Part shown: piece by piece, positions 10,311 to 50,668 of the stretch
Layout: each line of letters begins with the position of its first letter
Position numbering within the stretch: the stretch's first letter is position 1
Source of the DNA: Spirochaetia bacterium
GTDB lineage: Bacteria > Spirochaetota > Spirochaetia > DSM-2461
Direction of reading: 5' to 3'
NCBI GenBank assembly: GCA_963666985.2
Contig: CAXXIA010000001.1
Location: 1,056,001 to 1,120,000 of the forward strand
Length of the DNA stretch: 64,000 nucleotides
Translations under genes and position numbers: made by a program
The notes under the pieces: model-generated
Seen by the model: the letters and a program-made list of their open reading frames with translations, nothing else
Told to the model about the DNA's origin: nothing
The model's database searches: none

Positions 10311-10372
10311 ATTCGGTGTGTACCCCGTGAGGGGCCCAGGGTCAAGGGCATTGAAAGTGATCCTTATATATC

Positions 10373-10401
10373 TTGAAGAGCGAACAATACACATGTATAG
10401 T
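10373..10401 (+). promoter_or_regulatory. dinB promoter overlapped by the palindrome ATAC-ACAT-GTAT (candidate LexA-type operator)
   Basis: TTGAAG-17 bp-TATAGT; inverted repeat at 10387-10398. Confidence 0.5.
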
Positions 10402-10407
10402 ATTTCT

Positions 10408-28693: not shown

Positions 28694-29014
28694 ATGGGAA
28701 AGCAAACAAGGTACCCCAAGGAAGTCCGGGAACAATCTGTCCGGATGGTGTTTGAGAAGCAGAAGGACAGCGAATCTCAGTGGTCGGCGATTTGTTCAAT
28801 ATCCGCTAAGATCGGCTGTACACCCGAAACACTCCGGAAATGGGTTCGGCAGGCAGAAATCGATGAAGGGCAGCGGGATGGTCTAACCAGTGAAGAGCGT
28901 AAGCGTCTTAAAGAGCTGGAAAAGGAGAATCGAGAACTTCGTACTGCCAACGAAATTCTTCGAAAGGCCTCAGCGTATTTTGCCCAGGCGGAGCTCGACC
29001 GCCGAAAGAACTGA
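28694..29014 (+). CDS. IS3-family transposase OrfA
   Basis: RYPKEVREQSVRMV...IGCTPETLRKWVRQAE...ANEILRKASAYFAQAELDR. Confidence 0.92.
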   Translation: MGKQTRYPKEVREQSVRMVFEKQKDSESQWSAICSISAKIGCTPETLRKWVRQAEIDEGQRDGLTSEERKRLKELEKENRELRTANEILRKASAYFAQAELDRRKN

Positions 29015-29560
29015 TGGTCGGTTTTATCAATGAGAACCGGGAAGAATATGGAGTCGAGCCTATCTGCAAATCACTGCCGATTGCTCCGTCGACCTATCAT
29101 CTACAAAAAGCAAGAGAAGCTGATCCTGAACTCGAACCTGATCGAACACGTCGAGACCGGTTTCTTAAAAATGAGATTCAGGAGATATGGGATGAGAACC
29201 GTAGAGTCTACGGCGCCAGGAAAGTCTGGAAGGTTCTTAGAAATGAGAAGCATCTCCATGTAGCCAGGTGTACCGTCGAACGTCTTATGCGTTCTATGGG
29301 TCTCAGAGGCGTCATTCGGGGCAAGGGAACCAAGACCACCTTCCCGTCACCGAAAGATGAAAGACCCGAGGATCTGGTTAACAGAGATTTCACAGCTTCC
29401 AAGCCGAATCGGCTTTGGGTTGCGGATTTCACCTACGTTTCCACCTGGCAGGGCTTCGTCTATGTTGCCTTCATCATTGATGTCTTCTCCCGGATGATCG
29501 TCGGTTGGCGAGCTAGCCGGTCGATGAAAACCGACTTTACTCTTGATGCGCTCAATCAGG
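29014..29560 (+). pseudogene. IS3 OrfB, N-terminal part
   Basis: YGARKVW, VARCTVERLM, LWVADFTYV; cut by IS21. Confidence 0.9.
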
Positions 29561-29683
29561 TGTCAGCACCGGTGATAAATTTCCTGAAAACACCGGAATA
29601 AGATTTCCGGTTTTGAGCCAATAAAAACGGGCGAGTATCCCTAAGATGGAGTAACCATACACCCATCGAAAAGGACACTGCCC

Positions 29684-30937
29684 GTGAAGCTCCAGGAGAA
29701 ACGCATGCACCAGGCTCAAGTGCTGGCCAAGGAAGGGTACAAGCAGTACCGAATCGCCGAAATACTCGGCGTTACCGACCGAACGGTTCGAAATTACCTC
29801 AGCGGACACAGTCCCAAAATGAGCCCCAGGAAGAAACGGAAGAGCAAGCTCGACCACTTCAAATCCCATATTCGCAGTGTACTTGAGGAGGAACCGCTCT
29901 TCAATTGCGAGGTGCTTTATAAGAATCTTTGCGCCATGGGTTACACCGGAGGAATCACCATCCTCCGTGATTTCGCCAAAGAGACCCGAGATGAGATTCA
30001 GAGAGAAGTAGTTCGCCGCTTCGAAACCCAGGCCGGCTACCAGGCACAGATGGACTGGAAGATATTGCCGAAGGAACACTGGCGAGGCGTCTACGCCTTC
30101 GTCATGGTCCTCGGCTACAGCCGGACTCCCTATGTGAGATTCACCACCGATATGACCAGCGGCACACTGCTGGCCTGCCACCAGAAAGCCTTTGAGTATT
30201 TTGGCGGTGTTCCTCAGACTGTATTGTACGACAACATGAAAACAGCATGGGTCCACGACGGAGAAGAGTGGAAGACCAACTCCCGGTTACTGGAGTTCGC
30301 TTCCTCCTACGGTTTCTCTCCAAGACGATGCGCCGTCAGGCGTCCCCAGACCAAAGGAAAAGTAGAGAGGTTCATCGACTACCTTTCGGGTAACTTCCTT
30401 TCTCAGGCACGGCGTAGTGGCCTGAAGACGATCGAAGAACTCAATGACGCCATTCTGCCCTGGCTGACTGAAGTTCAGCAGAAAGAGCTCCGGGACTACC
30501 AGGAAAGTCGTGCCCAGCGATATGAGGTGGAGAAATCCTTCCTGCAACCGGCACCGCCAGAGGGAGCTTTTGACTACCGTGACAGCATTCAGCTCATTGT
30601 CAGTCGAGAAGGCTCAGTCACCTACAAGACTAACAAGTACAGCGTGCCGCCTGTATTGGTTGGTAAGAAGCTGACGCTGAAAATCGATGCGCTTTCCATG
30701 CAGGGGGAAATCCTCAATGGGAAGGTTTCCATACGGCTATTCAATCTCCTTCCAGCTGGCTCCCGGCAGAAGGATATCCGCAATGAAGATCGGGAAGCAC
30801 TCTTTACCCTGTGGGAGAAGCAGCGTAAGAAGTCGGCGAAAAAACCAGTCCGGAAGCAACAAGATGAGCAGACCATCGTCGATATCAGAAATCCTGCCTA
30901 CTATGAGCGCTTTGTCGCTGTGGGAGTCTCGGTATGA
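29684..30937 (+). CDS. istA: IS21 transposase IstA
   Basis: RFETQAGYQAQMDW, LGYSR, YDNMKTA, PQTKGKVER. Confidence 0.95.
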   Translation: MKLQEKRMHQAQVLAKEGYKQYRIAEILGVTDRTVRNYLSGHSPKMSPRKKRKSKLDHFKSHIRSVLEEEPLFNCEVLYKNLCAMGYTGGITILRDFAKETRDEIQREVVRRFETQAGYQAQMDWKILPKEHWRGVYAFVMVLGYSRTPYVRFTTDMTSGTLLACHQKAFEYFGGVPQTVLYDNMKTAWVHDGEEWKTNSRLLEFASSYGFSPRRCAVRRPQTKGKVERFIDYLSGNFLSQARRSGLKTIEELNDAILPWLTEVQQKELRDYQESRAQRYEVEKSFLQPAPPEGAFDYRDSIQLIVSREGSVTYKTNKYSVPPVLVGKKLTLKIDALSMQGEILNGKVSIRLFNLLPAGSRQKDIRNEDREALFTLWEKQRKKSAKKPVRKQQDEQTIVDIRNPAYYERFVAVGVSV

Positions 30938-31698
30938 ATATCAAACTTGAGACCGTCACCGAGAGAATGAATTCGCTGGGTATGAGTTTCATGTCCGCAG
31001 GACTGGAATCCTTCCTGGCAGAACCCCGCCGGCAGGAACAGACGGTACTGGATATCGTTGCCGACTTGATGGAACTTGAATACATCCCCCGTAAAGAACG
31101 GAGCGCCAAGAGCCGCTTGAAGCTTTCAGGAATGCCGGCAGTGAAAAGGCTGGAAGACTTCGACAGGGGGTGGCTCAAAGGTGGTATCACCAACCGCCAG
31201 TTTGACGAGCTCTCCTCTCTGGCCTTCATCGAGCGAAAGGAGAACGTCATTCTCATGGGTCCCAGCGGCCTGGGAAAATCTCATCTGATGCTGGCCCTGG
31301 GGCACAAGGCCTGCATGGAGGGATTCACCACCTACCATACCACCTGCATCGACCTCATTGAGAACCTGGTTCTTGCCCGAGAGAACAACCGGCTCAAGCG
31401 TCGGCTGGTATGGCTCCGAAAACCGCACCTGCTTCTCATCGATGAAGTCGGTTACGAGAAGCTGACACCCGAACAGGCTAATCTTTTCTTCCAGGTTGTG
31501 AATGCCCGGTATGAACAGGGGAGTATGATCATTACGACGAACAAGCCATTTGGCAGATGGGCGGAGATAATGAGTGATGAGGCTGTTGCCAGTGCAACCC
31601 TGGACCGTCTGCTTCACCATGCTCATATCCTGAGTCTTCAAGGAGACTCGTACCGAATGAAGGATCGGTTGAAAGCGGGAGTCGTTGACTTCCTTTGA
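30934..31698 (+). CDS. istB: IS21 helper ATPase IstB
   Basis: GPSGLGKSH, LLLIDEVGY, TTNKPF..W, ATLDRLLHH, GDSYR. Confidence 0.96.
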   Translation: MNIKLETVTERMNSLGMSFMSAGLESFLAEPRRQEQTVLDIVADLMELEYIPRKERSAKSRLKLSGMPAVKRLEDFDRGWLKGGITNRQFDELSSLAFIERKENVILMGPSGLGKSHLMLALGHKACMEGFTTYHTTCIDLIENLVLARENNRLKRRLVWLRKPHLLLIDEVGYEKLTPEQANLFFQVVNARYEQGSMIITTNKPFGRWAEIMSDEAVASATLDRLLHHAHILSLQGDSYRMKDRLKAGVVDFL

Positions 31699-31757
31699 CG
31701 CCCAAAACCGGAAAAACTAAATCGGTGAAATCCGGAAATGTTTCGTCGGTGTTGACA

Positions 31758-32128
31758 ATCAGGCGCTTTGGGCCAGGGAAGTAGTCGACGGTCTGATTCA
31801 TCACAGTGATCGTGGAAGGCAGTATCTTTCGTTTCGATATTCGGATCGATTGACAGAGGCCGGTATCGAGCCTTCGGTTGGGAGCAAAGGAGACTCGTAC
31901 GATAACGCAATGGCTGAGACTATCAACGGTCTCTACAAAGCCGAAGTCATCCACCGGAGGAGCTCATGGCAGAGAATAGAACAGGTTGAATTGGAAACCC
32001 TGGACTGGGTGGACTGGTACAACAACCGCCGAATCATGGAGCCGCTTGGAGATATCCCCCCGGCGAAGTTTGAATCGATGTATTATGAACAGGAAGAATG
32101 TTCGGCAGTAGCTGCCGGACTCAACTAA
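31758..32128 (+). pseudogene. IS3 OrfB, C-terminal part
   Basis: Continues in frame after IS21: ...ALWAREVVDGLIHHSDRGRQY...GDSYDNAMAETINGLYKAE...WYNNRR. Confidence 0.9.
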
Positions 32129-32158
32129 AACAGCCTCCGGGAATCCCGGTGTGGTTCA

Positions 32159-32702
32159 TTCCATAGATACATTTATGGTCGGGTATCTTAAGGGTGTAGG
32201 ACGCGTCTATATGCAGAGTGTCCTGGACTGCTATAGTCGCCACGCTTGGGGACGTCTGTACACATCTAAAATACCGGTGACCGCCGTCCATGTGATGAAT
32301 AACGACGTCCTTCCGTTCTTCGAGCAGCATAAAGTGAAAATCGAAACAGTGCTGTCGGACAATGGAAGGGAATACTGCGGCAGAGCTGACCAGCACCCCT
32401 TTGAACTCTTTCTTCTTCTGCTGGAGGATATAGAACATCGGATGACGGCTGTTCGACGCCCTCAAAGCAACGGATTTGTTGAACGTTTCCACCGAACAAT
32501 TCTTGATGAACACTTCCGTATCAAAGGCAGAACCAAGTTCTACGAGGCCGTTGCTGAGATGCAACAGGATCTTGACGAATACTTGGACCACTACAATAAA
32601 GAGCGGCCGCATCAAGGCCGAAATATGAATGGTAAGACACCCTTAACGGTCTTCGTTGAAGGCCTGAAAAAGATTCCAAAGAACGGCGGTAAAGCCGCCT
32701 AA
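32159..32702 (+). pseudogene. IS481 transposase C-terminal (integrase core) fragment
   Basis: IDTFMVGYLKGVGRVY, LSDNGREYCG, PQSNGFVERF, YNKERPHQG. Confidence 0.88.
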
Positions 32703-32943: not shown

Positions 32944-33972
32944 TTATTTACCCACGTATTTCATCATCAAATCGTAAATTCGATTAAGCTTAATCACATC
33001 CGGATGATCTACCTCATATTTTGTATCACCACCTGCATAATGGGTTAAGCGATAATACTTGTCATAATATTGATCTATAGCTGTAATTTGATAACCATCG
33101 CCCTCCGCATTCGGATATTCCTTTTTAGGGTTAAAGCCATTTTCCAATAGCCACCTTGCAGATTCATAGTTAACTGAATCAATTGCTACTTGTAACAGAG
33201 GTAATTCGGGATCAAAAAAATACCTCTTGCTGACCATGGCATCTGCCAACTTATCAAAAAAGACATCTATTCGACTTACCATCTCATATGAAAGACTTGC
33301 TTTATTGCTCTCAGATTCTAAATTATACCCATATTCTAACAACTTTAATGACGCTTCTGGTTTATTATCCAAAATTGAAGAATAGAAGGTCGTAAATCCT
33401 TTCGAAGAAGTAGCATACAAGTTAGGACTTAGTTGTAAGAACTTTTCCAAGTCTTCTGTACTATATTCGCTAATAATAAAAAAAAGTGCTGTATAACCGG
33501 AAGGTGAAGTAAACTCTATATTGGCTCCTTTTGCTACTAGTTCAATAATAAAATCAATACTAGCCCTATTAAGTGATGCCCAAGTCAACAACGAATTTCC
33601 CGATTCAATAAGAGAAGTATTAGGATCAAGTCCATAATCAAGCATCAATTTAATAACATTAGTTCTTTCTTTATTAACTAGGAAATCAATCACGCTAACA
33701 TTATTCATTTTAAAATTGGGATTAGCCCCGTACGTAAGGAGCAATTTAATTGCTTCTTCATCATCTTTTTCAACAGCCAATCTCAAAGGATAATTACTAA
33801 TTGATGGATCCCCTACATTGCCTTTTTTCTCCAACAATACTAAAAGTCTCTCGTTATTACCTTCTTCAACTACTGAATAGACTTCATCAACCGTCGGAGA
33901 ACAATTTAAAAAGATAGATACACCTACTGCAATCAGAAATATTACATAGCTATTCTTGTCGTTGAATAACAT
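32944..33972 (-). CDS. ankyrin-repeat lipoprotein, probable immunity protein
   Basis: Lipobox-like ...VSIFLNC; repeats PLRLAV...LLLTYGANPN, GNSLLTWA...GANIE, GYTALF; AT-rich; overlaps the toxin stop. Confidence 0.85.
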   Translation of the reverse strand: MLFNDKNSYVIFLIAVGVSIFLNCSPTVDEVYSVVEEGNNERLLVLLEKKGNVGDPSISNYPLRLAVEKDDEEAIKLLLTYGANPNFKMNNVSVIDFLVNKERTNVIKLMLDYGLDPNTSLIESGNSLLTWASLNRASIDFIIELVAKGANIEFTSPSGYTALFFIISEYSTEDLEKFLQLSPNLYATSSKGFTTFYSSILDNKPEASLKLLEYGYNLESESNKASLSYEMVSRIDVFFDKLADAMVSKRYFFDPELPLLQVAIDSVNYESARWLLENGFNPKKEYPNAEGDGYQITAIDQYYDKYYRLTHYAGGDTKYEVDHPDVIKLNRIYDLMMKYVGK

Positions 33973-36900
33973 AAACGCCTCTTACATCTTCTAACGTATA
34001 GTTTTTTGGTGTATTGCGGTCGGATGTATCATGGAATGATAAATTCCCTTTCTCATCAACACCCGTAACATTAACAAAATGTCCTCCAACATCCGCAATT
34101 ATATAGCCATTTTTACTATCACTTCCTGCGAATTCTTTTATGATGACTTGTGACTGAGCAGCATCTCTATTACGTAAAACACTGTATAATATTCCAGTCA
34201 TATCACCAACCAAAGCCGAGATTGTACTTTCATTCATATTTGCATCAGCACCCACACCACCAACTGTAGGAAAATCAAAACGAAAATACTTGTCTTTACC
34301 AGCAAGAGATGCTGCGCTTTGGTCTAAATAAGGGATAATATTTCTTGGGACACCTTTCTTCATGTTTATTTCCCTAGCTTCAGAATTCCCAATATTAACC
34401 GCTGCGATAAAAAGGCATCCAAAGTTACCAAGATTATTTTCTCTAAATGCGCCATTTCTTCCGCCAAAATCTCCTGTTCTACGACTTCCCATAAGTGCAG
34501 ACCTGTTAGTTGAGCTATTCATATATTGGCCAGAGGTAATATCGAGGATCTTCATCCCCGTCGGATCGATATATCTAACAGGATTATTCGAAACATACGA
34601 ATACCAGTTCGTTGCCTCAATAATGGAGTATCCCGATCGCGGCTTCCCATCACTGCCCATAGGATTAATCAACTCAAACCCCGCCGGGTCAGCACTCATC
34701 CATCGAGCCAACTGAGGCTCATAGTATCGAGCCCCGTAATAATACAGCCCGGTCTCCTCATCCCATTCCTTCCCCGTAAACCGGAAGGGAATCAGATCCC
34801 GATAGGAGCTGTCGGCATTCTGGATTTCCACCCAAAGCTCTCCCCAGGGGGTGTATTCAATCCTCTCATACACCTCACCCTCATGGTCGGTTATCAGACT
34901 CGCACTGCCCAAGTGGTCCGGATGATAGGTGTAGGTATGCGAATCTTCATAGCCGGTACTCTCTTGAATACTATTGTAGCCGATGCGGGTTATCAATCTT
35001 TGGCTGCCAAGGAAGATATGTTTGGATTGCCGTATGTCGCCGCTGTCGGTTACTTCACTCCAGTAGCTGTTGTAATAGAGGCTCTCTCCGCTTCCTGTGT
35101 ACTTGCTGGTCCGCTCTCCCTCACCGTCATAGAGAAAGCTGATGGTCTCTTGCGGCTGGAGAACTTTGATGAGATGGTTCTCTTCATCCCAGACGAACTC
35201 TCGTTTGTAGGGTTCACCTTCTTCTTTCTCCGGATTGCTCACCAAGCCGAAGCCTCTGTCGGCGATGCGAACCTCTCCGTCTCTGGTGAGATTCGGCCGA
35301 TCATTACTTGAGATTGTTTCCGGGTCTGTGACGCTTTCTTCAATGATGTTGCCGTTCTCATCATAGCTGTAATAAAGGCTGCCGACTTGAGTAGCCTGAT
35401 GGGGCTTGAAGTCTCCGTAGGTGTATTCCAATGAGTAATTCAGAAGGTTCAGGGAGGAACTGTCGGGAGGGCTGCGATCTTCCGATGAGACTTTGCTTAA
35501 CATGTTACCCAGGTTGTCATATGTGTATTGCTGACTGTAGGTGCTTCTCCAGCTTGGGATACCGTAGGGTCGGTGTTCGTAGGTGCCGCGGGAAGACACA
35601 ATCTGGTAAAGATCGTCGTATTCGTAGGTTTGGTTGGTGGTGCCCGCGTCGGTTGTGTTGGTTCGCTTCCTAACATTGCCGACGCTATCAAAGCTGTAGG
35701 TGATGTCCTGCCATGTTTGGTTGTATTCGTTTTGGGTGGTCAGGCTGGAAAGCCAACGGGTGTATGGGTCGTATTCATAGGTTGTTTCGGTGCCGTTTCC
35801 AAAGAGGATGTGGAGTCTCTGTCCGAACTCGTCATAGCCGATTGATTCAACAAGGATGTTTTCATAGCCCGGAATGTCGAGTCGTGTGCTGACGATGCGG
35901 TTGATTTGGCCTCCCTCGTCGTATTCATAGTCGATACGTTCCTCATCGGGATAGACGATGTGTCGCATGCGGCCCAGGTAGTCGCTTTGGTATTGCATGA
36001 GGGTACTGCGTTCGTTTTCCTGGGGGCTTTGCCGCTTAAGGGTACGGTTTTCCCAGATAACTTCGCCGAGTTCTCCGTAGCGGTATTCAATTTCTCCCGA
36101 GCCGTCTTTACGGGAAACAAGGCGGCCTGCCCTGTTATAGTCGCTACCGGATTCCCCGTAGGAATATTCGATGTTTTGGGTGTTACCGGTATCGGGATAG
36201 CGAACGGTTATGAGGCGGTTTAAGTCATCATATTCATAGGTGATTTCGGTGCCGACCCGGCGAAGATTGGCGTCGACTTTCCGGGTGATGTTTCCAACCT
36301 CGTCGTACTCGAATTCGATAAGGCCTCTTTCCGGACTCTTCCGGGTCAGACAGGCGCCGCGGAGGTCATAGGTAAATACGGTGACGATTTCACCTTTCGG
36401 GCCTTCCTGAGCAACCTGTACCAGTTCACCTGTAGGCCGGTAGTCGTAAAAGGCTTCCATCAGGATTGTCTCAGATCCATCTTGCCGGCTAATTCGGCGG
36501 ATTCTGCCGAAGCGGTCGTTTTCGCTCACCGACCGGTTTCCTTCGGGATCAATCTTCGTGGCGATCAGGCGTCCTTCATCATCTATACCGTATTCGAAGG
36601 TAACGATTCGCTGGGGATTACCCGGGAACGTGATGGTTACGGGTCTATCCAGTCCGTCGTATTCGGTTCGTGTAGGATTCTTAAGCTCAACCAATTCCGG
36701 CAATGCGATTCCGGAAATGAAGATCGACTGACCTTCAGCGATCACTCGTGCCTTGGCATCGAACTCAAGAGCTCCCGAGACATTCCAGCCAAGTTCTTTT
36801 TCCCCATCCAAATAGACCATGCCGGTTTTAGCGGTTTGCAGCGTGCGTCCCAATCCGTCAATATAGGTGACCGTTTCAATCACTTGCGTATCATCGCTCT

Positions 36901-39900
36901 CGAAGCTCACTTTGTTTCTGCTGATCGCAAGCGAAATCGGCGATGAATCGAAGTTTTCAGAATTTTCTTCTTGATCCCGAAGGCGGTATTCGTAGGCAAG
37001 TGCCGGAATATCTTCGTCATAGGGCGTATAGAGCGCAGTCAGGCGCCCGAACTCATCGTATTCACGCCTCTCAACTCCTTCGTTCCGATCAATACGGCTC
37101 TTCAAAAGGCCGCGGCTGTAATTCCAGCTCTGACGGCTATCATATCCGGCCCTACCGCTTTCGGCATTATCGGTCCTGATAACTTCAAGATACTTTTTCC
37201 ATCCCGACCTGTCATATTCAAATTGGAGCCTGTAACCGCGGGGATCGCTCAGAGAAATAAGGTTGCCCCAATCATCCCAATCCATTTCGTATTCATGGGA
37301 AACATTTTGTTCGCTGAAGTGAAGAATGCTCTTCGGGTTGCCTCGGTTGTCATAGGCTCCCTTACGGCGGCGGATCAATGCACCATCGGCGTCCCGAACT
37401 TCCATGCTCGTCGGAAGAGAGACCAAATAGCGATCGGGAAGATTCGGACGATACGAATCATGTCCGCTCAGATGCCGGTCGTATCGAATCTCCAGGATCA
37501 CTCCGGCATCCGGATCACCTTCAATTCGCTCAGCAACCCGAGTCACGTTTCCATACAAACCGTCGTATGTAAAATCTGTCATCATCACCGACTCCCGGTT
37601 ATCGGCGATTTCCTTTCGAATACTTGTTTGAACAACCGGTGCCGGATAACTGAAGTACGTTCCGCTTTCACATCTTGCGACGGTTCCCGGATAAGTTGTA
37701 ATTTCCCGGTTTACAAGATCCGACTCTCCGATAAAGAAAAGGGTTTCAAGAAGCAGCCCGCGTCTCTCATAAGAGTTATTTTCATAGCGCTTAACGATGC
37801 GGTTGAGGATTCTTAGAGTGCCCGAATTCTCATCTTCATCAAGAATACGCGTTGTGACTTTTGAGAATCCCAAAAACTGCCGGTCCTCCCGGTCATAACA
37901 GGCCCCTTCATAAGTAATGGCACTTTGATATTGATGAATACCGCCTTCGGTACGCTTTGAAGCATCGTTGCGGATAAAAGAGCTCATCACCCAGCGGCTC
38001 TGCGGACATTCGATTGAATGACTCGAACGTTCATAATCAAGTTCATATCTTCCGCCGGGAGGCAGTGTAATGGCCTTCAAGAGTCCGGTTTTTCCCAGAA
38101 TATTCTTCTTCACACGAACACCATCGTCGCCGGGAAAGGCCAGAACATGCTCGGGCGTGCCGTCTCCGTCCATATCCCGCATCGTTAAGGAAGCCGAAGC
38201 GGTTCCATAGGTTCCGCCGATGTCCGGCTGTACGGTCAGACTGATCACCTTAAAATTATAGGAGAAAGAAACATAGGCACCCAGATTCAGGCTTACACCG
38301 GTACTGTAATCCAGTACGTCTTCTATACTCGTGGGATTCAGGGCGTTTGAATCGGGATTCTCTGAAAAATTAATTGAAACAGTTCCCGCTGACGGCACCG
38401 AATGACCGGCCACTTCAAGTCCCTCTACATTTGATTGAAGTGCAGTCAAATCAGCCGCGATATCATCGGCAAGCCGGTTCTCCAGATCCAGAGCTTTCCA
38501 CTCCTCACGATAGATCTTTATCGGCTGCTCTGCGAACGTTATCGCCTAAGTTCACAAGGACCAGGAAGAAATCATTATCGGCTTTTTTCACCACCATATC
38601 AGGCAATCCGTCACCGGTCGAAATCCATCATTTTGTGGGTTGTTCGTCTTACAGTGCCGCTCCCGCCCATTGAAGCACCGGCAGCCGCCGCTCACCGGGC
38701 CGGCGTTTACATGAAATTCAACACCGACGGTCCCGCCGACCGAGCCGGTATTGCTTGTCTCCAAGCCTTCCGAAAGTCCATTAGTTTTGGCGAAAGCGGG
38801 AAGCACGCTCATGTTGAACCCGTTACCCCAGGAATACATACTTGTCTCAAAGGTGCCTCCGGTATTCAGATAAACTTCGATTCCGCTTCCACCGGAGCGA
38901 CTCACAAAATCCGGCAATCCGTCGCCATTAATGTCCCGCAAATCACGTGTCTTTACATTCTGGCTGAAAGCGAAGTTCACACCGGAACTTATGCCGCCTC
39001 CCTGTCCGTTATCATCACTTTTTTTTCCTTCCGCTGCTTTCTTGAACCCCGTGATTATTGCCATTGCCATCCGCGTATATATTTGAAGATCCGCCTGAGG
39101 TTCCTGCGGAAAAACCAATAGTATAACCGTCCATTTTATTAAACGAGAGATAAGATTGTGGAGAGGATACTGTAGCAATCGAACCGAATCCGTCGCCCGT
39201 TCCCGGCCAAAGCCGAAAGGAATCCCCTCCTTTTTGAGAGAATCTAAGCAAATCGGGATATCTGTTCCCCGTTGATATCGATTAATCCGGCATATTGGTA
39301 TGATTTTCCCCAGTTATGGCTTCCTTTGATACCCAGTCCGAAATCGACACCTCCGTTGATATCGTTGGTTATCGTCCGTCCGGCGCCGATGGTATCAAGA
39401 ACGGAAGTTGAGGATACACCCGGGATAATCTCATACCGCTCGCCGCCGCGGCGCGAGGGCCGCATCAAATCACCTTCTATCAAGGCTGTGTAGCGGCGCA
39501 TCTTATGAATCGATCGTCCTTGAGAATCCAGGTCGGTGTAGGCATTTTCACTGATATCGCCGATCCAGGAATCCTCCGAAACCGTTAAATCACCGCCCCA
39601 TTGGGAAAGATAGTATTCATCCGGCCCCACGATACTCTTCAGTCGATTAGGTTTCAGCGGAATATAATAGGAAGGAATCGGTGTGCCGAGTGCCTCAACG
39701 GCAGCATCACTTTTATTTTGAATATCATTATAGGAACTGTAGTCGGGTTCACCACTGAAAAATGAAGGATCAAATTCCCCGTGATATCCGTTCCATTGGC
39801 CGTAGAACCAGCCGGCGACTCCGCCGGACAGGTATTCACGAGGCATGGCCTTCAGCCGATTCACCTGATCATCAGTAACCTCGCCGCTAAATTCGCCTTC

Positions 39901-42900
39901 AATTTCAATCGGCGGTGTGGAGATATCCAAAGGACTAAAATCCTTTTCGGTATCAAAACGATGAACATAAGCGCGATACATCTTGGTAACACCGTCCGTA
40001 TCGAAATACGGGTAATCCGTAAATCCTGTCGGACTGGAGGTGCCCGGAGGTGTTCGAACTTCTCCTGCTTTTTGTGTTGACTCCAACTCTTTCATTCCGG
40101 AAGGAAGAAAGCCTTCACGAACTTCCAGCAGAGCATCGGCACGATAAATAAGGGATCTTTCAAGTCGTGAATACACCGAAAGTCCGGCTTCCGTGATGAA
40201 ATCTCGAACTGTTTCCTCATCATATCCGCCGTTTAGCCGGTAGAGATCGTCAATTTCATTAAAAACATAATAAGGAAAGAGTTCCACATCGGCCCGATAC
40301 CGTTTCAAAGCGGAGATCCACTCAGGATCATCGGAATCAGAAGGGACATACCGTGTCTCATCGCCACATTCCCATTCCACAAGGAGATCAAAACCTCCGT
40401 TTATCGCCGCGTTAAAATCATCGGCTTGCGATGAAGTCCATGGAACCGCCCTGAAGGGAAAGTCTCCGCCTGTCAGACACGAGAAAAGACTCCCTTTTCC
40501 GCTATTCGTATCCGCCGTAGGGACTGCATCCCAAAGTTGCAGCAGCAAATGATGTTTTTCAGCCGATAATGCGGGATTCAACAGGTAACGGCCGCCGCTT
40601 AAAAAATATGCATCCGCGGGGAGTGTCCGTGAAAGAGTTTCCGCCGCAGACTGAAGCGCCGCAAATTCATCAGCCGCAAGTTCATCAATGCCGGTGGGAA
40701 CAATCTCTTCGTCGGCCAGAATCACCGGACGAAGAAGAGTCTCATAAACCTCTTTACTCATTGAAAGAAGCAGGGAATCAGGCTCGTCAAGAATAAATCG
40801 GTGAAGAATGCCGTCCCGTTCGGCTTCAATCCTCAGGGATTCCGTATCCTCGCGAATATCGGTAAGAGGCAATTCACGAACCGCTCCGTTCCGACGCTCT
40901 TCAACAGACATTACACCGTTCTCTTCAACAAGAAAGAAAGAGATCAACCCTCTTCCGTCTTCAGGATTAATTTTTTCCAGAAGGATCTCGCCGTTCGGGC
41001 CGCACTCGCCAAGATTCAAATCTTCACGTGAAGAAGGCCTGCGTGCCTCAATGAAAACCTCCGGGCCCGTCTCCACAGACTCAGCGGGATTATCATCGAT
41101 ACGGGCCAACAGAACCGGATTTTCACGATGAGGCAAAGAATATGAAGCCATGGCCGAACGCTCATTGGCATGAACTTCAGAACGAATCCATTCACTCAGA
41201 TAGTCGGTGCCGCCGGAGGCCGTACGGTGGTAGCACCCTGTAGCAGGATCGTAAAACCATGCCAGAGCTTGGTTGATCACAGCCCTATTTTTCTTTTCTT
41301 CCGCATCGGGTTCCTGAAATGTCAGCTTCCTAACGTATGAGGAAAAGGATTTATACTGATTGGCCGTCAGCCTCCGAGGCTCCAGATATCCTTCCGAAAC
41401 GAGAATCCGAATATGATTTTCATTGATTATCTCTTTCCAGTTTTCCATGAGTCCGGAATAATTGATTTCCTGATAATCGGAGAGCTTTTCCGTAAGAGAA
41501 GGATCAGGTTCGTATAAATCATCTAAACCGAGAGACGGAACCATCGTTTCCCTCATTTTCAAAGGAGGCGCAATCTCGGCGGAATCGCCCATATCTTCAA
41601 ACAGTTTTATCGCACCGTAACGGATATCAACATTCCACAGAACCGGATCATTCAAAACATCATCTCCGGCATCCAAATGGAAATACACGGCATCCCGCCG
41701 ATTCACTTCCACTTCAACAGGCTTATTTCGTACATCCGCTGCGGCACCGCAGACTATGAATAAGGATTCGGGACGACTTCCGTCCGGCAGCAGAATCTTT
41801 GCTTCCGCCCCGTCGTTACTCCCGGCCGCAGAGGCCTCATATTCCAGTTTGTCAGAGATATACACCGTACCGCTTCTCCAGGCCCGCCACTCCCGAAGCG
41901 GTTCCTCGCAATAGTAATTTCTCTTCAGATCTTCTATTTCCGCCGGACTGAAATTCTCATTGAGACTGAAGCCTTCACCTGTAGCCGTATCTTGAGGTAA
42001 AACCCAACTGATGTTCCCTTTTCCATCGTTAAGACCGAATTTTGGATTTCCCTTTTCTATGAAATCCAAATATCCGTCGCCATTGATGTCGGTCGGTGTT
42101 CGCTTCCCTTCACTCCATCCCCACTGCCGGGTATAGCCTCCGCTGACGGGTCCAATTCCCGCCGATAATCCGAAAGAGGCTTCGGTTTCCCCGCCGGATG
42201 AATAATGCCCGTTCAGTCCGTACAAATAAGCCGTTCTTCCGGAGAAACCCGTTCCAGAACCGCTGTTGAGTACTCCGATCATGTCGTCTCCGGACCGCCA
42301 TGCCAAATCGGGCAAACCGTCCCCGTTTAAATCGGTCAAATCGGAATAAATCGCGTTTGAGCCGCCGCCGCCGCTCCCCCTCAAACCGATACTGAGAATC
42401 TTCTTCTTCCAGAATAAAATAGGGATATAAATCTCCAAGCCCGTATACAAACCCATGGAAGATCCGGTATTTACCGAATAATTCAGCCCTGAATAGTCAG
42501 GTTCGGTTCCTCCGTAACTCCAGAGGGTGTCCTCTTCAAAGCCCATGTAGCCGTCTTCTTCCGAGGCCGGCTCATGGTATTGAAAGTCATAACCGTAAAA
42601 GAGTTCCCCGGACGGTCCCGCTTCCTCATAGCGGCGCAGTACGGTTCGCCCGAAAGGATCCACCTTGTAGAGGAAACGATAGGAACGCACAAGCGCCGTC
42701 GTATCGGAGACTCCATAAGCAGCTCCGTTTAAAACCGAGCCGTCGTTATTTGTTCTTATCTCCAAAGCATCCAGACGACGGGAGTCGATTATCGGAAACT
42801 TCCCCCGTGATTCGATGCGAACATCCGGCCGCAGACGAATATTTTCACCGGTATCGGCAATCCCAAGCCGCCCGCTTTCTTCCGTTCCGATACAATGTCC

Positions 42901-44160
42901 GATTTGATCATAAAGAAAATCGACCCGAACCGTCCCGTCTCCAAACGCATTCTCACCGTCCCGTCCCGAATACGCCACGGCTTTCAGATAAAGATTCCGA
43001 TCTTCCTCATCGTATTCCCAGTCATAATCGACGCTGTTTCCATTCGCATCGATAATCCTTCGCAGCCGCCAGATGTAAACACCTTGATCTTTACCGGATT
43101 TCACGGAACCTTCAGTACGTCCCGGGCCAAGCCAAGCCCCTTCATCTCCGTAAATGCGAACCGTCCCGTTCCGCTCACTGATCTCCCACCAATCACCTTC
43201 ATCGGCAAACCATCGAATCCTCGCCAGCCGACCTTCCTTGCGCAGAATATAAACTCGTGCCTCACCCGACTCACCCATATAGGTGAGTTCCTCTCCGTCA
43301 AGAACATATGTATCTTCTTTATCGTATTCGGGAAGTCCGAAACGTGTATCGATCCGCACCGAAGATGTGCCGATGTCGAATCCCAGACCCATCAGTCCGT
43401 TCCCGCCGCCGCTATTATAAGAAAGCGCCAAAGGCGGCGTAGCGCCTCCGCGTCCTGGAAGAAGACGAAACGGTATACGAAATGTCGCCGATCCCTGTTC
43501 ACTCGGCTCAAGGCCTTCGAGAGAAGGAATCTCCGTATTCGCAAGGACCGCCTCCAAAGACTTGATGGAATTCAAATCAAAATCGATGGGAGATGGCGCC
43601 TCGGGAAGTGCCAAAGTGTTGTTCACCATGTCGGTAAAATGCGTTGTTCGACTTGTAATGGTATTCTCTTCCTTGTTGATCCCCTGACGCGGCAGACGAA
43701 CCCACCGTCCCAAATCAGTGTCGAGGAAAGACGTGTAGAGATCATCCAAAACCGTTTCATCATCATTCAGGGAAGGATCGTACGGCAGGGTTACCAAAAC
43801 CTCTTTGGAAAACTTCAATCCTTTCGGTTCAAAGCGGTAGCCCTTCGCGCCGATGGTAACGTTTTGTCGTCCGTCCGAAAGAGCGGCCACCCGGAAAAGA
43901 GCCGATATCGTAATCATCACAGTCTTATCAACCGCTCCCGGCGGAACCTGTAGACGAACCGAGCCCGCTTCCAGAACACCGCCTTCTTCGGGAGTAACGG
44001 GAGCCGATACTATTATTCTCGATTCACTCCTTGTTTTCTCCACCAAAGCGGACGAGAGGGGCACCGTATCTTCATTATTCGAAGGAAGGGCGTATGCAAC
44101 CGGTGCAAATAGAAGCGTTTGAACAAGAACAACGGATAAAAGACGCTTCCAATATTTCAT
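33950..44160 (-). CDS. giant SpvB/TcaC-type RHS/YD-repeat polymorphic toxin (~3,400 aa after correcting five +1 frameshifts at 38539-39266)
   Basis: Signal peptide; ZU5-like domain; SpvB (PGRGGATPPLALSYNSGGGNG); DxNGDGLPD repeats; YD repeats; RHS core FTGKEWDEETGLYYYGARYY...NPVRYIDPTG; ~200-aa variable tip. Confidence 0.88.
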
Positions 44161-44822
44161 GGCAGCCGGTACCTTATGGTTACCGGGAAGTCCGGAAAAT
44201 CTTCATGCGGAGACACCACGGCGAGAAATCCTTGAGTTCCTCCGCTGTGGTAAGGCTCTTCATCGTCAACAAACCGATAAACGTCTATGTCATTGATCAG
44301 CAAGGTAAAAACGCCATTGGCCTCCCGTTCGACGGTCAGTTTGTTTTCCCGGCCGTATTCTTGTTCAATCGCATCATTCGGCAGCCAGTTCTCGAAAGGC
44401 CGGTAGTCGGTTCCAAGAACCTCCGCGACTTGAAAATATCCGTCGCAGCGGATCATTACCGTCAGCATGGTTTCTCTCTCTTCCCCGTCTTCGCCGCATT
44501 CACGGCTCCCATGGCAAAGAATCATCCCGTACCCGGCATAGCGTTCACCGCCGTCTTTGGTAGCGATCAGACTCCAGCGTTCAAAAGGTTCCTGAGAATC
44601 TTCGGCCGGATACCAGAAGCTCTTTCCATACGGAAGCGCGTTTGTTGTGTCGTTGGTGGAAAAAATCCATTCATTCACCAAACCGGTAGGTCGGAACAAT
44701 TCCGTCGAAACCTCCACGCCGCCTTCGCCGGTTCCGCCGCTCCATCCTCCGGGCTGCCAATCCAAATTACAGGAGGCTAAGAAAACAGAACAAAAGACTA
44801 TGGATATAACGAGGCCTTTCAT
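44157..44822 (-). CDS. lipoprotein, predicted beta-sandwich (lectin/DUF1080-like)
   Basis: Lipobox VFLASC; beta-rich pattern GYGMIL...NKLTVER...FTLLIND; stop overlaps the toxin ATG. Confidence 0.7.
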   Translation of the reverse strand: MKGLVISIVFCSVFLASCNLDWQPGGWSGGTGEGGVEVSTELFRPTGLVNEWIFSTNDTTNALPYGKSFWYPAEDSQEPFERWSLIATKDGGERYAGYGMILCHGSRECGEDGEERETMLTVMIRCDGYFQVAEVLGTDYRPFENWLPNDAIEQEYGRENKLTVEREANGVFTLLINDIDVYRFVDDEEPYHSGGTQGFLAVVSPHEDFPDFPVTIRYRLP

Positions 44823-44825
44823 AAC

Positions 44826-45614
44826 TCACACTCCTCCCCGGGAGAGAGAAGTAAACGAATGAATCTTCAGCACGTAGACCTTAAGAGCGCCCCCGACCAA
44901 TGAATAATCGGTAAAGAACTGCTGATCGTTCGGAGAAATACGAAAGCGAAGGTCCTTTGCCGCAAGAGTATTGTTGGCAAGAACGATGGTATCTCCGTTG
45001 TCAATGTGGTCGCGTGATTCATTCTCAAGATAAAGATCCATATGTGTCGGACCCGATCCGAGAAAATCCTGCTGGATAAAAATAATATTTGCCTGCATCT
45101 TCGGAGGAACGGTCATTACATACCAATCCGCGTCTTCAACCGTTTCACCCGAATACGCGGCGTAAAAGAAGATGTTGGCGGTGATATCGGTTGAAAGTTC
45201 TGTTGCTTCCTCCCGTCCGTCGTTCGGTTCATATTCGTCCCGCCGAACATCGCTCCCCACGCCCAGGACCGCATCGGAAGGACCGAAATGGCGCGTTCCC
45301 CGGACATTCCCCAGGGTGTATAAATACTGAGCGCCGCCTTCAACGCCCGTATCGGTGTATTCCCGGGCGCTTCCTCGATAGACGATTTCGTAATCGGCCG
45401 TAAGATTATCGGGTTTGCGATACAGGATGAACTCATCGGTTCCCTCATCCTCTTTCCATCTTACAGAAATGGTATTCTCCGTAATAAAGGATGAAACTTC
45501 AGGTTTCCTTACTACCGGTTCGTCGAGGCTCCGTGACATATCGGGAAGCAGTCCGGCGCCGCAGGAACTAAAAATGACGATGGAAAACGTAAAAAAAACG
45601 ATACGGGACTTCAT
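44826..45614 (-). CDS. lipoprotein with an FN3-like domain and a DxYEPND/PPC-like domain
   Basis: Lipobox VIFSSC; ISVRW...FILYR...YTDTG...YLY; DEYEPND...DADWY. Confidence 0.75.
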   Translation of the reverse strand: MKSRIVFFTFSIVIFSSCGAGLLPDMSRSLDEPVVRKPEVSSFITENTISVRWKEDEGTDEFILYRKPDNLTADYEIVYRGSAREYTDTGVEGGAQYLYTLGNVRGTRHFGPSDAVLGVGSDVRRDEYEPNDGREEATELSTDITANIFFYAAYSGETVEDADWYVMTVPPKMQANIIFIQQDFLGSGPTHMDLYLENESRDHIDNGDTIVLANNTLAAKDLRFRISPNDQQFFTDYSLVGGALKVYVLKIHSFTSLSRGGV

Positions 45615-46627
45615 GGAATCTCCTTTTTCCCCGGAATGGAGAACTCGTAAAAAAGAGCGGGACGGATTTGTATCCGAACGGGAGAATAGAAGATCATCCC
45701 GCAGCCGGCGCTCAGGCCGAGTGAAGAAGAATCGTTAATTCGAAAAATGTAGGAGAGTGAAAGCGACAGGCCGCCCGCCGCCGAAACGGCGGTCCGATTC
45801 CCGGTGTAAAGACGATTCTGAACGATCATATCCAGATACAGCAAAGGTGCACCCGTTAATCGAATCTGATGTCTTCGTCTCCACTCCGCACAGATATCTA
45901 TGGGGAATTTCAGCAGCAGGCCCTGAAAGAAAAACTCCTCATGCCCCGGTCGCCGCATGCCTGTTTCATAACCAAGATTCAAGCCGAAACGGAGAAAAAG
46001 GTCCCAGGAGCCGCTGTATAGAATCGGCCGAATCGGCGTCAGAGATCCTCCCAATTCCAGGGAACACAAACCTGTTAGCGCATCATTCCAGCTTCCGGCG
46101 CAGGACCACCATCCAAGATCAATACTAAAATCCCATGCGGCATGTTCTTTCGCTCGAATCGTCACCGGCGCCGCAAGATTCAATTCTTCCGAAAAATAAA
46201 CATAGAGTTTCTTCGCCAGATCTTCGATAAGGCGATCCGTTCTGGCCGATTCATCACGTCCGAAGAGCGCTTTAACAACGGTCCCTTTTTCAGCGTCAAA
46301 AACACGAATCACACCATCGGCGATGTCGGATGAACTCCGAATCGCTCCGTATACCAAAAGATCAAGCCCATAGATTCCGCACCAATCCGCCGCATCAAGG
46401 ATGGAACGCGGTGCATCCGGGGCATCGATTTTTCCAATAATAAAGACACCGAACGAAGAACCCGATCCCAATGCGTTCACGGTATCGGCGACGGTTTGAG
46501 AAAAAACCGAACCATCCTCCGATCCTTCAACCGCCATCGGCGCGATGCCGATCTGAAGCCCCGCAAGTTCCGAAACCGTAAATACGATACCGATTACCCA
46601 AACGACAGAAGAAAGAAGAACTTTCAT
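45611..46627 (-). CDS. exported protein: periplasmic alpha/beta (TolB_N/CsgG-like) domain plus predicted small outer-membrane beta-barrel
   Basis: Signal peptide; GLDLLVYGAI...IRVFDAEKG...LIEDLAKKL; C-terminal half has alternating hydrophobic strands ending ALFYEF. Confidence 0.6.
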   Translation of the reverse strand: MKVLLSSVVWVIGIVFTVSELAGLQIGIAPMAVEGSEDGSVFSQTVADTVNALGSGSSFGVFIIGKIDAPDAPRSILDAADWCGIYGLDLLVYGAIRSSSDIADGVIRVFDAEKGTVVKALFGRDESARTDRLIEDLAKKLYVYFSEELNLAAPVTIRAKEHAAWDFSIDLGWWSCAGSWNDALTGLCSLELGGSLTPIRPILYSGSWDLFLRFGLNLGYETGMRRPGHEEFFFQGLLLKFPIDICAEWRRRHQIRLTGAPLLYLDMIVQNRLYTGNRTAVSAAGGLSLSLSYIFRINDSSSLGLSAGCGMIFYSPVRIQIRPALFYEFSIPGKKEIP

Positions 46628-47898
46628 CGTTTTCTTTCCAATCTTTCGCTTGCTCGAATTTCAATCGTCCTTAAACGCTCTACGTTTTCGAGAGACAGTC
46701 CTTTTCGAGTATATTCAAGAGATTTTTCCGGTTCATTCAGCCGCAGATATTCTTCGGCGATATCCGCGCACCGGGAAACAACGTTGTCAATATCATCCTG
46801 TGTATGAAGTTCGGTAATCGTGATTGATCGATTCCAGGCATCTATGGCCCGTTTCCCTTCACCAAGGCTCTGATAAGCGCGGCCAATTTTTTCATGCAAT
46901 GCCGGAGAACTTCGAATCCCTGCGGATTTTGTCCAATAAACTAACGCCGCTTCATACATCTCATCTTCAAATTCCAGGCACCCCAGTCCGTTCAGAGAAA
47001 CCAAATTCCGCGGATTTCTTTTTAACGATTCGAGATAGGCACGTTCGGCATCATCATATTTTCCGAGTTCATAAAAAGCGTTCCCGAGGAGAGAGGGCGG
47101 TGCATCATCATCCGGCCGTAATTCCGATACCGTTCTTAACAGGGCTGCGGCATTCTCCGGATTACCATATTGAAGGTTTAATCGCCCCAAATCCCACGTT
47201 AATTCGACATCGTCGGGATCGATCTTCAGTAAGGTCGTTCCGAGAACAATCGCCTCTTCGGAATCCCCCGTTTCCAAAGCCATGTCGTAGGCCAATTGAA
47301 GAGCTTCATCACTGAAAGGATTTTTTTCCAGCGCGGCGTACACCCCTCGGCGAATTTCAGTGGAATCCGCAATGGGTAATGGAGAGGCCTTGAGCGCTTT
47401 TGCATAATTCAAAGGATAAAGAGCGGGCTCAGGGTCCCGTTCCCAAGATGCTTTAAAATAGGCGGCGGCATCTTCATAACGGCCGTCTTTGAACGCCTCG
47501 CCTCCCAAACGATCATATTCTGCGGCTAACGCGGAACTCTCCGAGGATTCAAACCGAGGTTCCATCCCCGAAAGAAGTGCCTGTAAAGAAACAACTTCTT
47601 CGATTATTCCTTCCGTTTTTCTTAAGATCTCAACACTTAAGATTGTTTCATCAATTCGTTTCTCAAGCCGGTCGCAATCTTCCCCGAAGGCAAATTCCAT
47701 CTGCGTCAAACGGCCGCTTATAGAATTCGAACACATTTTCAGGGAGCCGATTTCCGCCATGACATCATCATGCAAAGAACTTAAATCGCCGCGCCGCATC
47801 AGAGCGGTTAAGAAAATCACCGCCGCCAACAGAAGGAGAGAGATCGGAATTAGACCGTTCAAAATTCGTTTTACGGATGATTTACCGAATAAGGGCAT
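46624..47898 (-). CDS. membrane-anchored coiled-coil/TPR protein
   Basis: One N-terminal TM, a heptad-rich segment, many TPRs (LGNAFYELGKYDDAERAYLESLKRNP); ATG 47898 after GGGGG. Confidence 0.85.
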   Translation of the reverse strand: MPLFGKSSVKRILNGLIPISLLLLAAVIFLTALMRRGDLSSLHDDVMAEIGSLKMCSNSISGRLTQMEFAFGEDCDRLEKRIDETILSVEILRKTEGIIEEVVSLQALLSGMEPRFESSESSALAAEYDRLGGEAFKDGRYEDAAAYFKASWERDPEPALYPLNYAKALKASPLPIADSTEIRRGVYAALEKNPFSDEALQLAYDMALETGDSEEAIVLGTTLLKIDPDDVELTWDLGRLNLQYGNPENAAALLRTVSELRPDDDAPPSLLGNAFYELGKYDDAERAYLESLKRNPRNLVSLNGLGCLEFEDEMYEAALVYWTKSAGIRSSPALHEKIGRAYQSLGEGKRAIDAWNRSITITELHTQDDIDNVVSRCADIAEEYLRLNEPEKSLEYTRKGLSLENVERLRTIEIRASERLERKR

Positions 47899-48148: not shown

Positions 48149-48892
48149 TTGAGATTCATCACTACATTTCTATTTATCGCTGCCGCAATCCTGACGTTTA
48201 ATTCCTGCGCCACTCAAACGGACGAAGTGCCTAAAACGGTTCGGGAATTCTTGGATTCCTATAACTGGCGCATGGAAATCTTTCGAAAAAGCGATGTCAG
48301 CGACCTAACAGATTTTCAATTTCATGAACGGTGGTATCTTCTCGACGGAAATCTTGAGGAAGTCTGGTCTTTATACACGGAGATCAGTCCGGCGGCACAA
48401 TGGAACGGACCCATCGCGCATTTCGGGCTTCTTTACGATCCGAATACTTCCGCGATTCTCACGCCCGCGAACCGGGACTTTCCGCCGATTGAAGTTGGTA
48501 ATATTCTTTTTCTGGATCTCTTGATTGAAGAAATTCTGCATGTTACGACTTCGTTTCAAATTTCCCGCTTGGATAATCAGACGAAAACCATCGAGTTTAC
48601 TTATCTTGAACAAAACACATCCCACGGCTGCCAGGAACTGAAGTTTTATCCTGCGGAAGGAGGAACTCGAACGCTGATCCGCCATCGATCTCATTTTAAA
48701 AGCGAGTCACCTCTTCGCGACGCCCTTTTCTACCGCCCCTACCATAATCAGACCGTGGACGAATTCCATTGGACCGTGGCCAAACAATCCGGAATGAATC
48801 TCGATGTCATGCGCCTCCGTGAAATAAAAAAGAAAGGGCTGCTCCCCTCGGAACAGCCCCTTGAATCTATAATAACTACCGTCTCTTACTGA
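48149..48892 (+). CDS. hypothetical lipoprotein
   Basis: TTG start; lipobox LTFNSC; 247-aa ORF. Confidence 0.7.
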   Translation: MRFITTFLFIAAAILTFNSCATQTDEVPKTVREFLDSYNWRMEIFRKSDVSDLTDFQFHERWYLLDGNLEEVWSLYTEISPAAQWNGPIAHFGLLYDPNTSAILTPANRDFPPIEVGNILFLDLLIEEILHVTTSFQISRLDNQTKTIEFTYLEQNTSHGCQELKFYPAEGGTRTLIRHRSHFKSESPLRDALFYRPYHNQTVDEFHWTVAKQSGMNLDVMRLREIKKKGLLPSEQPLESIITTVSY

Positions 48893-50261: not shown

Positions 50262-50668
50262 GATTGTACCTCCCGACCGGATAAAACCGATCAACAGCGC
50301 CGTCTAAGCGGCAAAAAAAGCTCAACATTTCATGTCAATGGTACTTTTCGTAATAAGACTTCTTAAATAATCCAAAATATGGTTATTTAAATGTAACACG
50401 TACCACGGATCAGTTCAAAGCTTTTTTTACGTTCAAGGGTCTATTATACCGCTCAATTTTCTTATTCATCGGCGCTTAGTTCAATAATAACGATGATTTA
50501 TTCGATCGAGTCATGGGAAATGTCTATGGTGTTTATCAGTTATTGTTTTTATGAAGATCTTATGAAGATGCTTTTTAGGTGAAAAATCATGCCTTCGGGC
50601 TTAAAAACTCCGCCTGCGAAAATAATCCGGACTGGAATCAACGGGTACTCGAAGACTATGGTTGAAGC

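Follow-up and report, generated by a model that had tools for sequence, protein, structure and literature searches.

A conserved four-gene cassette accompanies giant SpvB/RHS toxins in Spirochaetia and shows a genomic link to type II secretion secretins

The TcdB/TcaC class of polymorphic toxins was named in 2012 by a survey that places spirochaetes within its phyletic range and proposes self-cleavage by a ZU5 domain (Zhang et al., 2012; PMC3482391). Since then, it has been a question how such signal-peptide-bearing SpvB/RHS toxins cross the outer membrane where there is no type VI secretion system (T6SS), type IX secretion system (T9SS) or TcA component. In Xanthomonas, the activity of the RHS bacteriocin Bcn-A is lost in an xpsD mutant (PMC7259588), and in the XRhs VIII and RRhs II families of Xanthomonas and Ralstonia the Rhs gene is linked to gspG (bioRxiv 10.1101/2025.05.08.652813). 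A role in competition has also been described for Serratia's type II secretion system (T2SS) (PMC13729183). For spirochaetes, the T2SS has been noted in passing (PMC6668835), a survey of treponeme genomes records no complete secretion systems (PMC8049484), and mentions of treponemal YD genes are confined, in the parts of the literature available to us, to annotations, to pseudogenes or to rows of microarray data (PMC3747143, PMC8049484, PMC7586716); the accessible part of a further paper (PMC7941034) held nothing relevant. Here, we describe a locus in a window of 64,000 nucleotides, the whole stretch of DNA that was analysed (contig C1, positions 1,056,001-1,120,000), from a Spirochaetia genome of 4.86 Mb (G000; assembly GCA_963666985.2, 3 contigs, 93% complete). 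It encodes a giant SpvB/RHS toxin, which by its sequence belongs to the TcdB/TcaC class, an ankyrin-repeat protein and four accessory proteins, which we refer to as the TPR protein, the barrel protein, lipoprotein A (lipoA) and lipoprotein B (lipoB). The module is real, widely conserved and apparently undescribed, and the gene-context evidence for a secretin route is strong; in a literature search that covered main texts and few subscription journals, we found no description of the cassette, of its link to the T2SS or of the short secretins reported below.

Across the class Spirochaetia, the cassette has a conserved order, TPR - barrel - lipoA - lipoB - SpvB/RHS toxin - immunity. With lipoA as the marker, we compared 62 relative loci (L022, L033, L034, L064-L095 and L098-L125 without L106), to which some genomes contribute two; omitted from this count were L096, a 100-aa fragment, L106, which lies on the same contig as L064, and L097, whose false lipoA hit is an FN3 protein that has T9SS-type tails and is encoded next to an Amuc_1098-like secretin. 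Among the loci that could be assessed for the gene in question, the barrel gene lies upstream of lipoA in 59 of 60, lipoB downstream of it in 56 of 59 and an RHS toxin downstream in 45 of 50, while the TPR gene is in position in 47 of 59 by hidden Markov model (HMM) and in 52 of 59 if five Pfam rescues are added (six of the 12 misses were rescanned). The same association appears at the level of whole genomes. In a class sample of 401 genomes, in which a lipoA match with E < 1e-20 defines a cassette genome, full-length lipoA is found in 36, and SpvB is matched in 33 of these 36 as compared with 10 of the other 365. Of the three lipoA genomes without SpvB, two come close to a contig end immediately behind lipoB; in the third, lipoA is followed by other genes. 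The tie between the four genes and the toxin, which a sequence-only reading of the window had proposed, is thus upheld, and homologs of the accessory genes occur mostly together with RHS genes. Among the named carriers are Treponema putidum (L065), T. socranskii (L083), Brucepastera (L089, with the toxin in pieces) and rumen treponemes; the barrel is present in T. pedis. By itself, lipoB is a non-specific marker, with distant, toxin-less relatives of the same lectin fold in 8 of 20 loci (L024, L026, L035-L040). In one locus (L120:1-1546, genome G559), the place of lipoB after lipoA is taken by a protein with a phage tail collar domain and a further lipoprotein.

Structural models and structure-based searches give the accessory proteins recognizable folds, although the barrel protein, lipoA and lipoB have no Pfam or NCBIfam match. 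In its AlphaFold2 model (mean predicted local distance difference test (pLDDT) score 75.7, 27 sequences), the barrel protein has a signal peptide, a TolB_N/FlgT/PelC-like domain (residues 24-148) and an OmpA/NspA-like barrel (164-329) of eight long strands. The top matches of the model are NspA (Z 14.7, root-mean-square deviation (rmsd) 3.1 over 149), OmpA (Z 13.7), OprF (Z 13.6), PagL and OmpW, and its alpha/beta domain resembles TolB_N, FlgT and PelC (Z 10-11.7; TolB N-domain Z 11.5, rmsd 3.0 over 122). The barrel that had been suspected at 45611-46627 is therefore confirmed by model and fold search. OmpA-family barrels are of the anchor type and not protein channels. As it has eight strands, the modeled protein is an outer-membrane anchor that is too narrow for a channel; its strand number rules it out as the translocation channel, and likewise an autotransporter or two-partner translocon, which requires a barrel of 12 or 16 strands.

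The two lipoproteins, seen earlier as FN3/PPC-like and beta-sandwich proteins, are supported as such by the structure-based searches. In lipoA, the lipobox cysteine, Cys18, is invariant in 46 sequences, and the FN3 domain is matched by 3mpc (E 5e-5); the PPC-like second domain is a lead, with FN3/PPC look-alikes at 0.87-0.89. Some relatives carry greatly expanded forms, such as P0039 (3,037 aa) with 13 tandem FN3-PPC units and P0040 with 10 extra FN3 repeats; at L094:9944-16470, directly after the barrel gene, 10 tandem units can be counted in the incomplete open reading frame (ORF) that corresponds to P0039. Expansions of this kind are seen as would fit an extensible surface stalk. In lipoB, Cys18 is invariant in 45 sequences, and the AlphaFold2 model (pLDDT 92.3) has a CBM66/ConA-type lectin fold (CBM66 4b1m, Z 15.6, rmsd 2.4 over 144), and the protein may bind sugar. 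This is the accessory gene that stays closest to the toxin: it stands beside the toxin gene where barrel and lipoA are missing (L031, L032, L136, L143, L151), and in genome G485 the cassette is split into a barrel-lipoA half and a TPR-lipoB-toxin half (L106, L143). The folds, together with the genes that stay together in split cassettes (L106, L143, L151, L136), make it plausible that barrel and lipoA form an anchor and stalk, that lipoB is a partner of the toxin and that the TPR protein is a chaperone.

The second association concerns the T2SS. A secretin is matched in 34 of the 36 cassette genomes, and in 35 if G448, with a secretin on L131, is added, compared with 76 of the 365 others. In 16 of the 36, from eight families, it lies within 30 kb on the same contig, where simple arithmetic leads one to expect about 2% for each genome, and among 46 loci that could be assessed, 30 include a T2SS gene. 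Many treponeme loci have the cassette as the 3' end of one operon, which runs from A24 peptidase, secretin, GspE, GspF, GspG, pseudopilins, GspK-like, PilN-like and a PEGA/TPR lipoprotein to TPR, barrel, lipoA, lipoB and toxin; the GspK-like and PilN-like matches come from relatives only and are weak or derive from purpose-built HMMs. The layouts vary, with the secretin upstream and co-directional, divergent (L113, L117), downstream (L106), interleaved (L141) or inside the cassette. At L141 (genome G195), gspG is followed immediately by the RHS gene of a second toxin, and no lipoprotein gene separates the two. Separately, L139 (genome G465) has a different large RHS-like gene of 3,392 aa, divergent from a T2SS operon and without the cassette. 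The secretin link is also favoured by G030: this cassette genome, a single contig, has no secretin match, and its barrel is a remnant and its toxin fragmented.

In the genome studied here, the T2SS operon lies on another contig than the cassette, at C2:3,095,965-3,106,300 (L061:7965-18300). It contains secretin, GspE ATPase, GspF, the major pseudopilin GspG and prepilin peptidase, and it ends in the gene for the PEGA/TPR lipoprotein, which in treponemes lies immediately before the TPR gene. The GspE scores higher with the GspE than with the PilB model (461 vs 404 bits, both below cut-off), the major pilin GspG of a relative passes the TIGR01710 cut-off, and the genome, at 93% completeness, has a single T2SSE match above cut-off and hence no retraction ATPase, unlike type IV pili. 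A GspL/M-like region of the operon does not resolve into clean ORFs. The sequence-only reading had recognized no export genes, which holds within the window and not for the genome as a whole; the secretin escaped it because it is located on another contig.

Other routes were searched for in the whole genome, which is 93% complete. For the T6SS, neither VipB (PF05943) nor Phage_GPD (PF05954) is matched, with the positive controls matched; it is the only one of these searches with working controls. No machine was found for the T9SS and TcA routes either: GldM and VRP1 are not matched in this genome, nor were they in any control. The TIGR04183 sorting tail is not present on the two large toxin pieces. 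Elsewhere in this genome without a GldM match, a T9SS type A sorting-domain match above cut-off lies at C2:1,331,601-1,331,843, on an open frame of 1,616 aa.

We hold with high confidence that the toxin of this locus family is polymorphic and antibacterial and has an accessory cassette dedicated to it, and we consider it likely that the outer-membrane step depends on a secretin; that the toxin itself has this dependence appears to us slightly better than an even bet. The best overall reading is that of a surface-tethered polymorphic toxin exported by Sec and a secretin with a dedicated hand-over module, for which we would put the probability at roughly 0.55. In this scheme, where secretion is inferred from gene context, the giant toxin would be exported by Sec into the periplasm and would cross the outer membrane through the T2SS secretin, which in this genome would be the one on contig C2. 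The four genes would constitute a dedicated accessory module and not the channel: the inner-membrane TPR protein and the PEGA/TPR lipoprotein may chaperone the cargo or hand it to the secretin, the eight-stranded barrel and lipoA would serve as outer-membrane anchor and stalk, and lipoB could bind either the toxin or the surface of the target. Self-cleavage of the ZU5 domain at its HFT motif would then probably set the shell free, and the variable tail, in this locus a probable papain-like peptidase, would act on the target envelope, which the predicted export of the immunity lipoprotein would match.

Several points weigh against this scheme. The main physical objection is size: the cargo comprises 3,200-3,400 aa, and a shell of TcB/TcC type may exceed the width of a secretin lumen. 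With 112.7 bits for PilQ and 103.4 bits for GspD, the secretin of this genome stays below both cut-offs and is ambiguous between the two models, and in 20 of the 36 cassette genomes, including this one, no secretin lies within 30 kb, many of them being on short contigs. Conversely, a secretin occurs in 76 genomes that lack the cassette, so that the T2SS has other cargo and the linkage could partly be a matter of history. In genome G065, a single contig at 99% completeness, two intact toxins occur with lipoB, and neither a secretin nor full-length lipoA is matched; G503 retains just lipoB and a toxin, and its secretin is on a different contig. The toxin gene of the present genome is itself split. 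Moreover, the genomes are related, so that all counts overstate independence, and the absence of a known motor in treponemes of genus g2, treated below, may mean that their cassette is decaying, in keeping with the T. pedis YD genes that have been called pseudogenes (PMC3747143).

One alternative holds that the T2SS carries lipoA and lipoB to the surface, while the toxin leaves by other means, such as vesicles or lysis, and then docks on them. It would explain the linkage without the passage of a very large shell through the pore; a lipoA stalk of up to about 3,000 aa must reach the surface in any case, the export of surface lipoproteins by the T2SS is established for PulA, and in G065 intact toxins persist although no secretin is matched. 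Against it stand the RHS gene directly behind gspG at L141, with no lipoprotein gene in between, and the activity of a Xanthomonas RHS toxin that is tied to xpsD, even if passage itself was not demonstrated there. A secretin dependence confined to the lipoproteins seems rather unlikely to us, and we give the same low standing to the docking model built on it. Much less likely still is the view of the earlier reading, in which the four proteins themselves form an envelope-spanning translocon and the T2SS link is incidental. Their products do reach from the inner to the outer membrane, the TolB_N/PelC/CsgG-like domain is of a ring-capable fold class, and in this genome, as in others, the T2SS and the cassette are not linked; yet the barrel has eight strands, a secretin is present in 35 of 36 cassette genomes, in some within the cassette after loss of the motor genes, and the cassette falls into two halves in G485. 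What remains of that view is the conserved, toxin-tied module, with the T2SS secretin as the likely channel. Finally, the lectin fold of lipoB, the FN3 stalk of lipoA and the proposed attachment of treponemal YD proteins to carbohydrate (PMC3747143) could point to a system that is mainly an adhesin or glycan-binding surface complex, a notion that the hypervariable tails (27 clusters from 29), the small gene after most tails and the orphan tail cassettes make the least probable of all.

The Pfam search matched the domains named by the earlier reading, that is TPR repeats, SpvB, RHS and ankyrin, as well as FG-GAP and TcdB_midN. On the 5' piece of the toxin gene, SpvB is matched with E 1.5e-22 and FG-GAP with E 7e-6, and the match to ZU5 (E 0.008) is below cut-off; the N-terminal signal peptide was judged by eye. 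HF[TS] is known as a cleavage site from ZU5/GPS domains. The motif is kept within the ZU5-like region in 44 of 45 toxin N-termini of relatives, which fits the ZU5 self-cleavage proposed for the class (PMC3482391). The 3' piece matches RHS_repeat (PF05593, E 2e-37), TcdB_midN (E 8.5e-15) and TIGR03696. The locus thus has the signal peptide, SpvB, propeller, RHS repeats and core, variable tail and adjacent putative immunity gene of the TcdB/TcaC class; in this assembly, the toxin does not lie in a single intact reading frame.

The toxins of relatives are encoded in a single intact frame of 3,194-3,442 aa. Aligning four of these proteins along the whole toxin gene, we mapped about five frame changes between ~39,270 and ~38,540, a patch of ~750 bp, and none in the other ~9.4 kb; no segment is missing relative to the intact relatives. 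This density exceeds the assembly background, in which two distinct frameshifted genes were found among 53 matched conserved gene places (69 kb). One of them, at C2:1124-3884, carries a frame change in what we take to be a secA-like gene. In the window, an HrpA-like helicase at 7029-10598 (-) matches DUF3418 only at profile positions 1-321 of 582 and may be truncated or frameshifted. The three ORFs, a number of frame changes above background and an insertion-sequence cluster immediately after the immunity gene would suit a dying pseudogene in this organism, whatever the role of the locus in relatives. We consider this improbable, given that every break falls within one short patch without loss of a segment, that the presumed secA-like gene is frameshifted in the same assembly, and that full length is preserved in the four accessory genes as well as in the core genes of the T2SS. 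The tight clustering of the breaks and the other frameshifts fit bad polishing better than decay, and the split is probably an assembly error.

The tail of the toxin has no match in Pfam or in a sequence search of the PDB. Its Atlas neighbours (0.95-0.96), several of which carry Peptidase_C39/C39_2 on 13-81% of their members, make a papain/C39-like peptidase fold probable. Across relatives, 29 pattern hits for tails after the RHS core fall into 27 clusters, with at least three of the hits being false (non-RHS). An ORF directly follows the tail in 20 of 24 cases, with none called in the other four, and 15 of these 20 post-tail genes have a hydrophobic N-terminus compared with 94 of 207 background ORFs, a crude comparison. 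The ankyrin protein of our locus likewise has a hydrophobic N-terminus with a lipobox-like cysteine, and its gene is a stretch of low GC content (0.39-0.40 vs ~0.50). Tail polymorphism and the exported-looking products, including the ankyrin lipobox, suggest bacterial targets and envelope-acting tails that would need no TcA-like injector. Orphan tail cassettes occur at L030, L045 and L054. In the present genome, an orphan RHS core/tail cassette at C2:1,893,886-1,894,638 (L062:8886-9638) lies beside an insertion sequence and is followed by small exported-looking genes and by two copies of a gene pair that is presumably HicAB-like. In genome G466, a group II intron reverse transcriptase is inserted at the start of the toxin gene (L109:11347-12678). 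Two spirochete genomes without the cassette carry canonical, high-scoring SpvB (TcB-like) genes (G633, contig C37, E 1e-95; G669, contig C28, E 1e-84).

Some treponemes carry shortened secretins. In genus g2 (G166, G215, G284 and G255, two of them single-contig), a 400-aa secretin that has a signal peptide, a single N domain and the pore domain lies between lipoA and lipoB, in the layout of the T. putidum locus L065, and no GspE, GspG or GspF is matched in these four genomes. At L067, L069 and L085, the cassette is preceded by a secretin of 506-534 aa; a T2SS cluster is present separately in two of these genomes, and no GspE is matched in the third. G724 and G725 combine a short secretin in the cassette with a T2SS cluster elsewhere. 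One could speculate that the TPR/barrel/lipoprotein module acts as an adaptor specific to its cargo, enabling a secretin to export an RHS toxin of ~350 kDa, and that in certain treponemes it has entirely taken the place of the pseudopilus motor, the shortened in-cassette secretin then forming a motor-less, toxin-dedicated system; we regard this as doubtful.

The features of the locus are listed in Table 1. The TPR gene is likely to start at 47898, just 3' of the ribosome-site-like motif GGGGGA, and no sigma-70-type promoter was matched upstream of the cassette. The spacing of the genes is as described before: ATGA overlaps at 46624-46627, 45611-45614 and 44157-44160 (ORF coordinates), a 3-bp gap between the lipoA and lipoB ORFs (44823-44825) and a 23-bp overlap between toxin and ankyrin genes (33950-33972). 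Of the six genes claimed earlier, the four upstream genes and the ankyrin gene are borne out, and the single giant toxin gene is replaced by three ORFs. Directly downstream of the immunity gene, the insertion sequences are nested, with an IS21-like IstA/IstB and other integrase pieces, at the position that orphan toxin cassettes take in relatives. Directly upstream of the cassette, a convergent pair at 48149-48892 (+) and 48894-50294 (-) has signal-peptide-like starts and no significant Pfam match; by eye, the C-terminal half of the latter product is alternating and barrel-like.

Table 1. Features of the toxin locus and its flank, in window coordinates
Feature	Position	Strand	Basis
TPR protein with N-terminal membrane anchor	46624..47898	-	TPR_2 E 6e-21; ORF open from 47961
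Outer-membrane anchor protein (barrel)	45611..46627	-	predicted model and fold search
Lipoprotein A (lipoA): FN3 and PPC-like unit	44826..45614	-	FN3 match, conserved Cys18
Lipoprotein B (lipoB): CBM66/ConA-type lectin beta-sandwich	44157..44822	-	predicted model, conserved Cys18
Toxin gene, 5' piece, 1638 aa: signal peptide, ZU5-like with HFT motif, SpvB, FG-GAP repeats	39244..44160	-	
Toxin gene, middle piece, 196 aa	38588..39178	-	FG-GAP_3 E 3e-6; within frame-change patch
Toxin gene, 3' piece, 1499 aa: TcdB_midN, RHS/YD repeats, RHS core ending DPTG, 200-aa variable tail	33950..38449	-	
Ankyrin-repeat protein, predicted exported immunity protein	32944..33972	-	Ank_2 E 1e-12
Insertion-sequence cluster, outside the module	29014..32702	+	rve, IstB_IS21, rve_3, HTH_21

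For the question of outer-membrane crossing, this locus family offers a specific and testable answer, a secretin and four named accessory genes. Its carriers include cultured oral treponemes (T. putidum, T. socranskii) as well as rumen and environmental spirochetes. If the answer is right, spirochetes would possess a dedicated interbacterial weapon, the cargo range of the T2SS would be stretched, and the motor-less forms would pose the problem of how a secretin works without a pseudopilus.

Among described systems, the TcdB/TcaC class shares with our locus the signal peptide, a ZU5 or ZU5-like domain, SpvB, the integrin-like propeller, RHS, a variable tail and immunity, whereas its description names no outer-membrane route, secretin or accessory cassette in the text available to us, and its supplement may list these loci (PMC3482391). 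The TcB-TcC shell of Tc (ABC) toxins likewise unites SpvB, FG-GAP, TcdB_midN and RHS in one chain; unlike it, the toxin described here has a signal peptide, a ZU5-like domain and adjacent putative immunity genes, in a genome without a VRP1 match (controls silent). The T2SS-linked Rhs proteins of Xanthomonas and Ralstonia, which we compare by description only, are RHS toxins without a T6SS that show a need for xpsD or linkage to gspG, and Bcn-A also requires small accessory ORFs. Bcn-A differs in its length of 1,398 aa and in its accessory ORFs, which encode 100-290 aa and lie downstream, and the accounts available to us describe neither a barrel/FN3/lectin cassette nor a dedicated or shortened secretin for this group. 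With the known spirochaete T2SS, finally, our operons have in common a secretin with N0 and N domains, GspE, GspF, GspG, A24 peptidase and, by matches in relatives that are weak or from purpose-built HMMs, GspK-like and PilN/GspL-like genes, and they are set apart from it by an extra PEGA/TPR lipoprotein, the coupling to a toxin cassette and motor-less forms with a short secretin.

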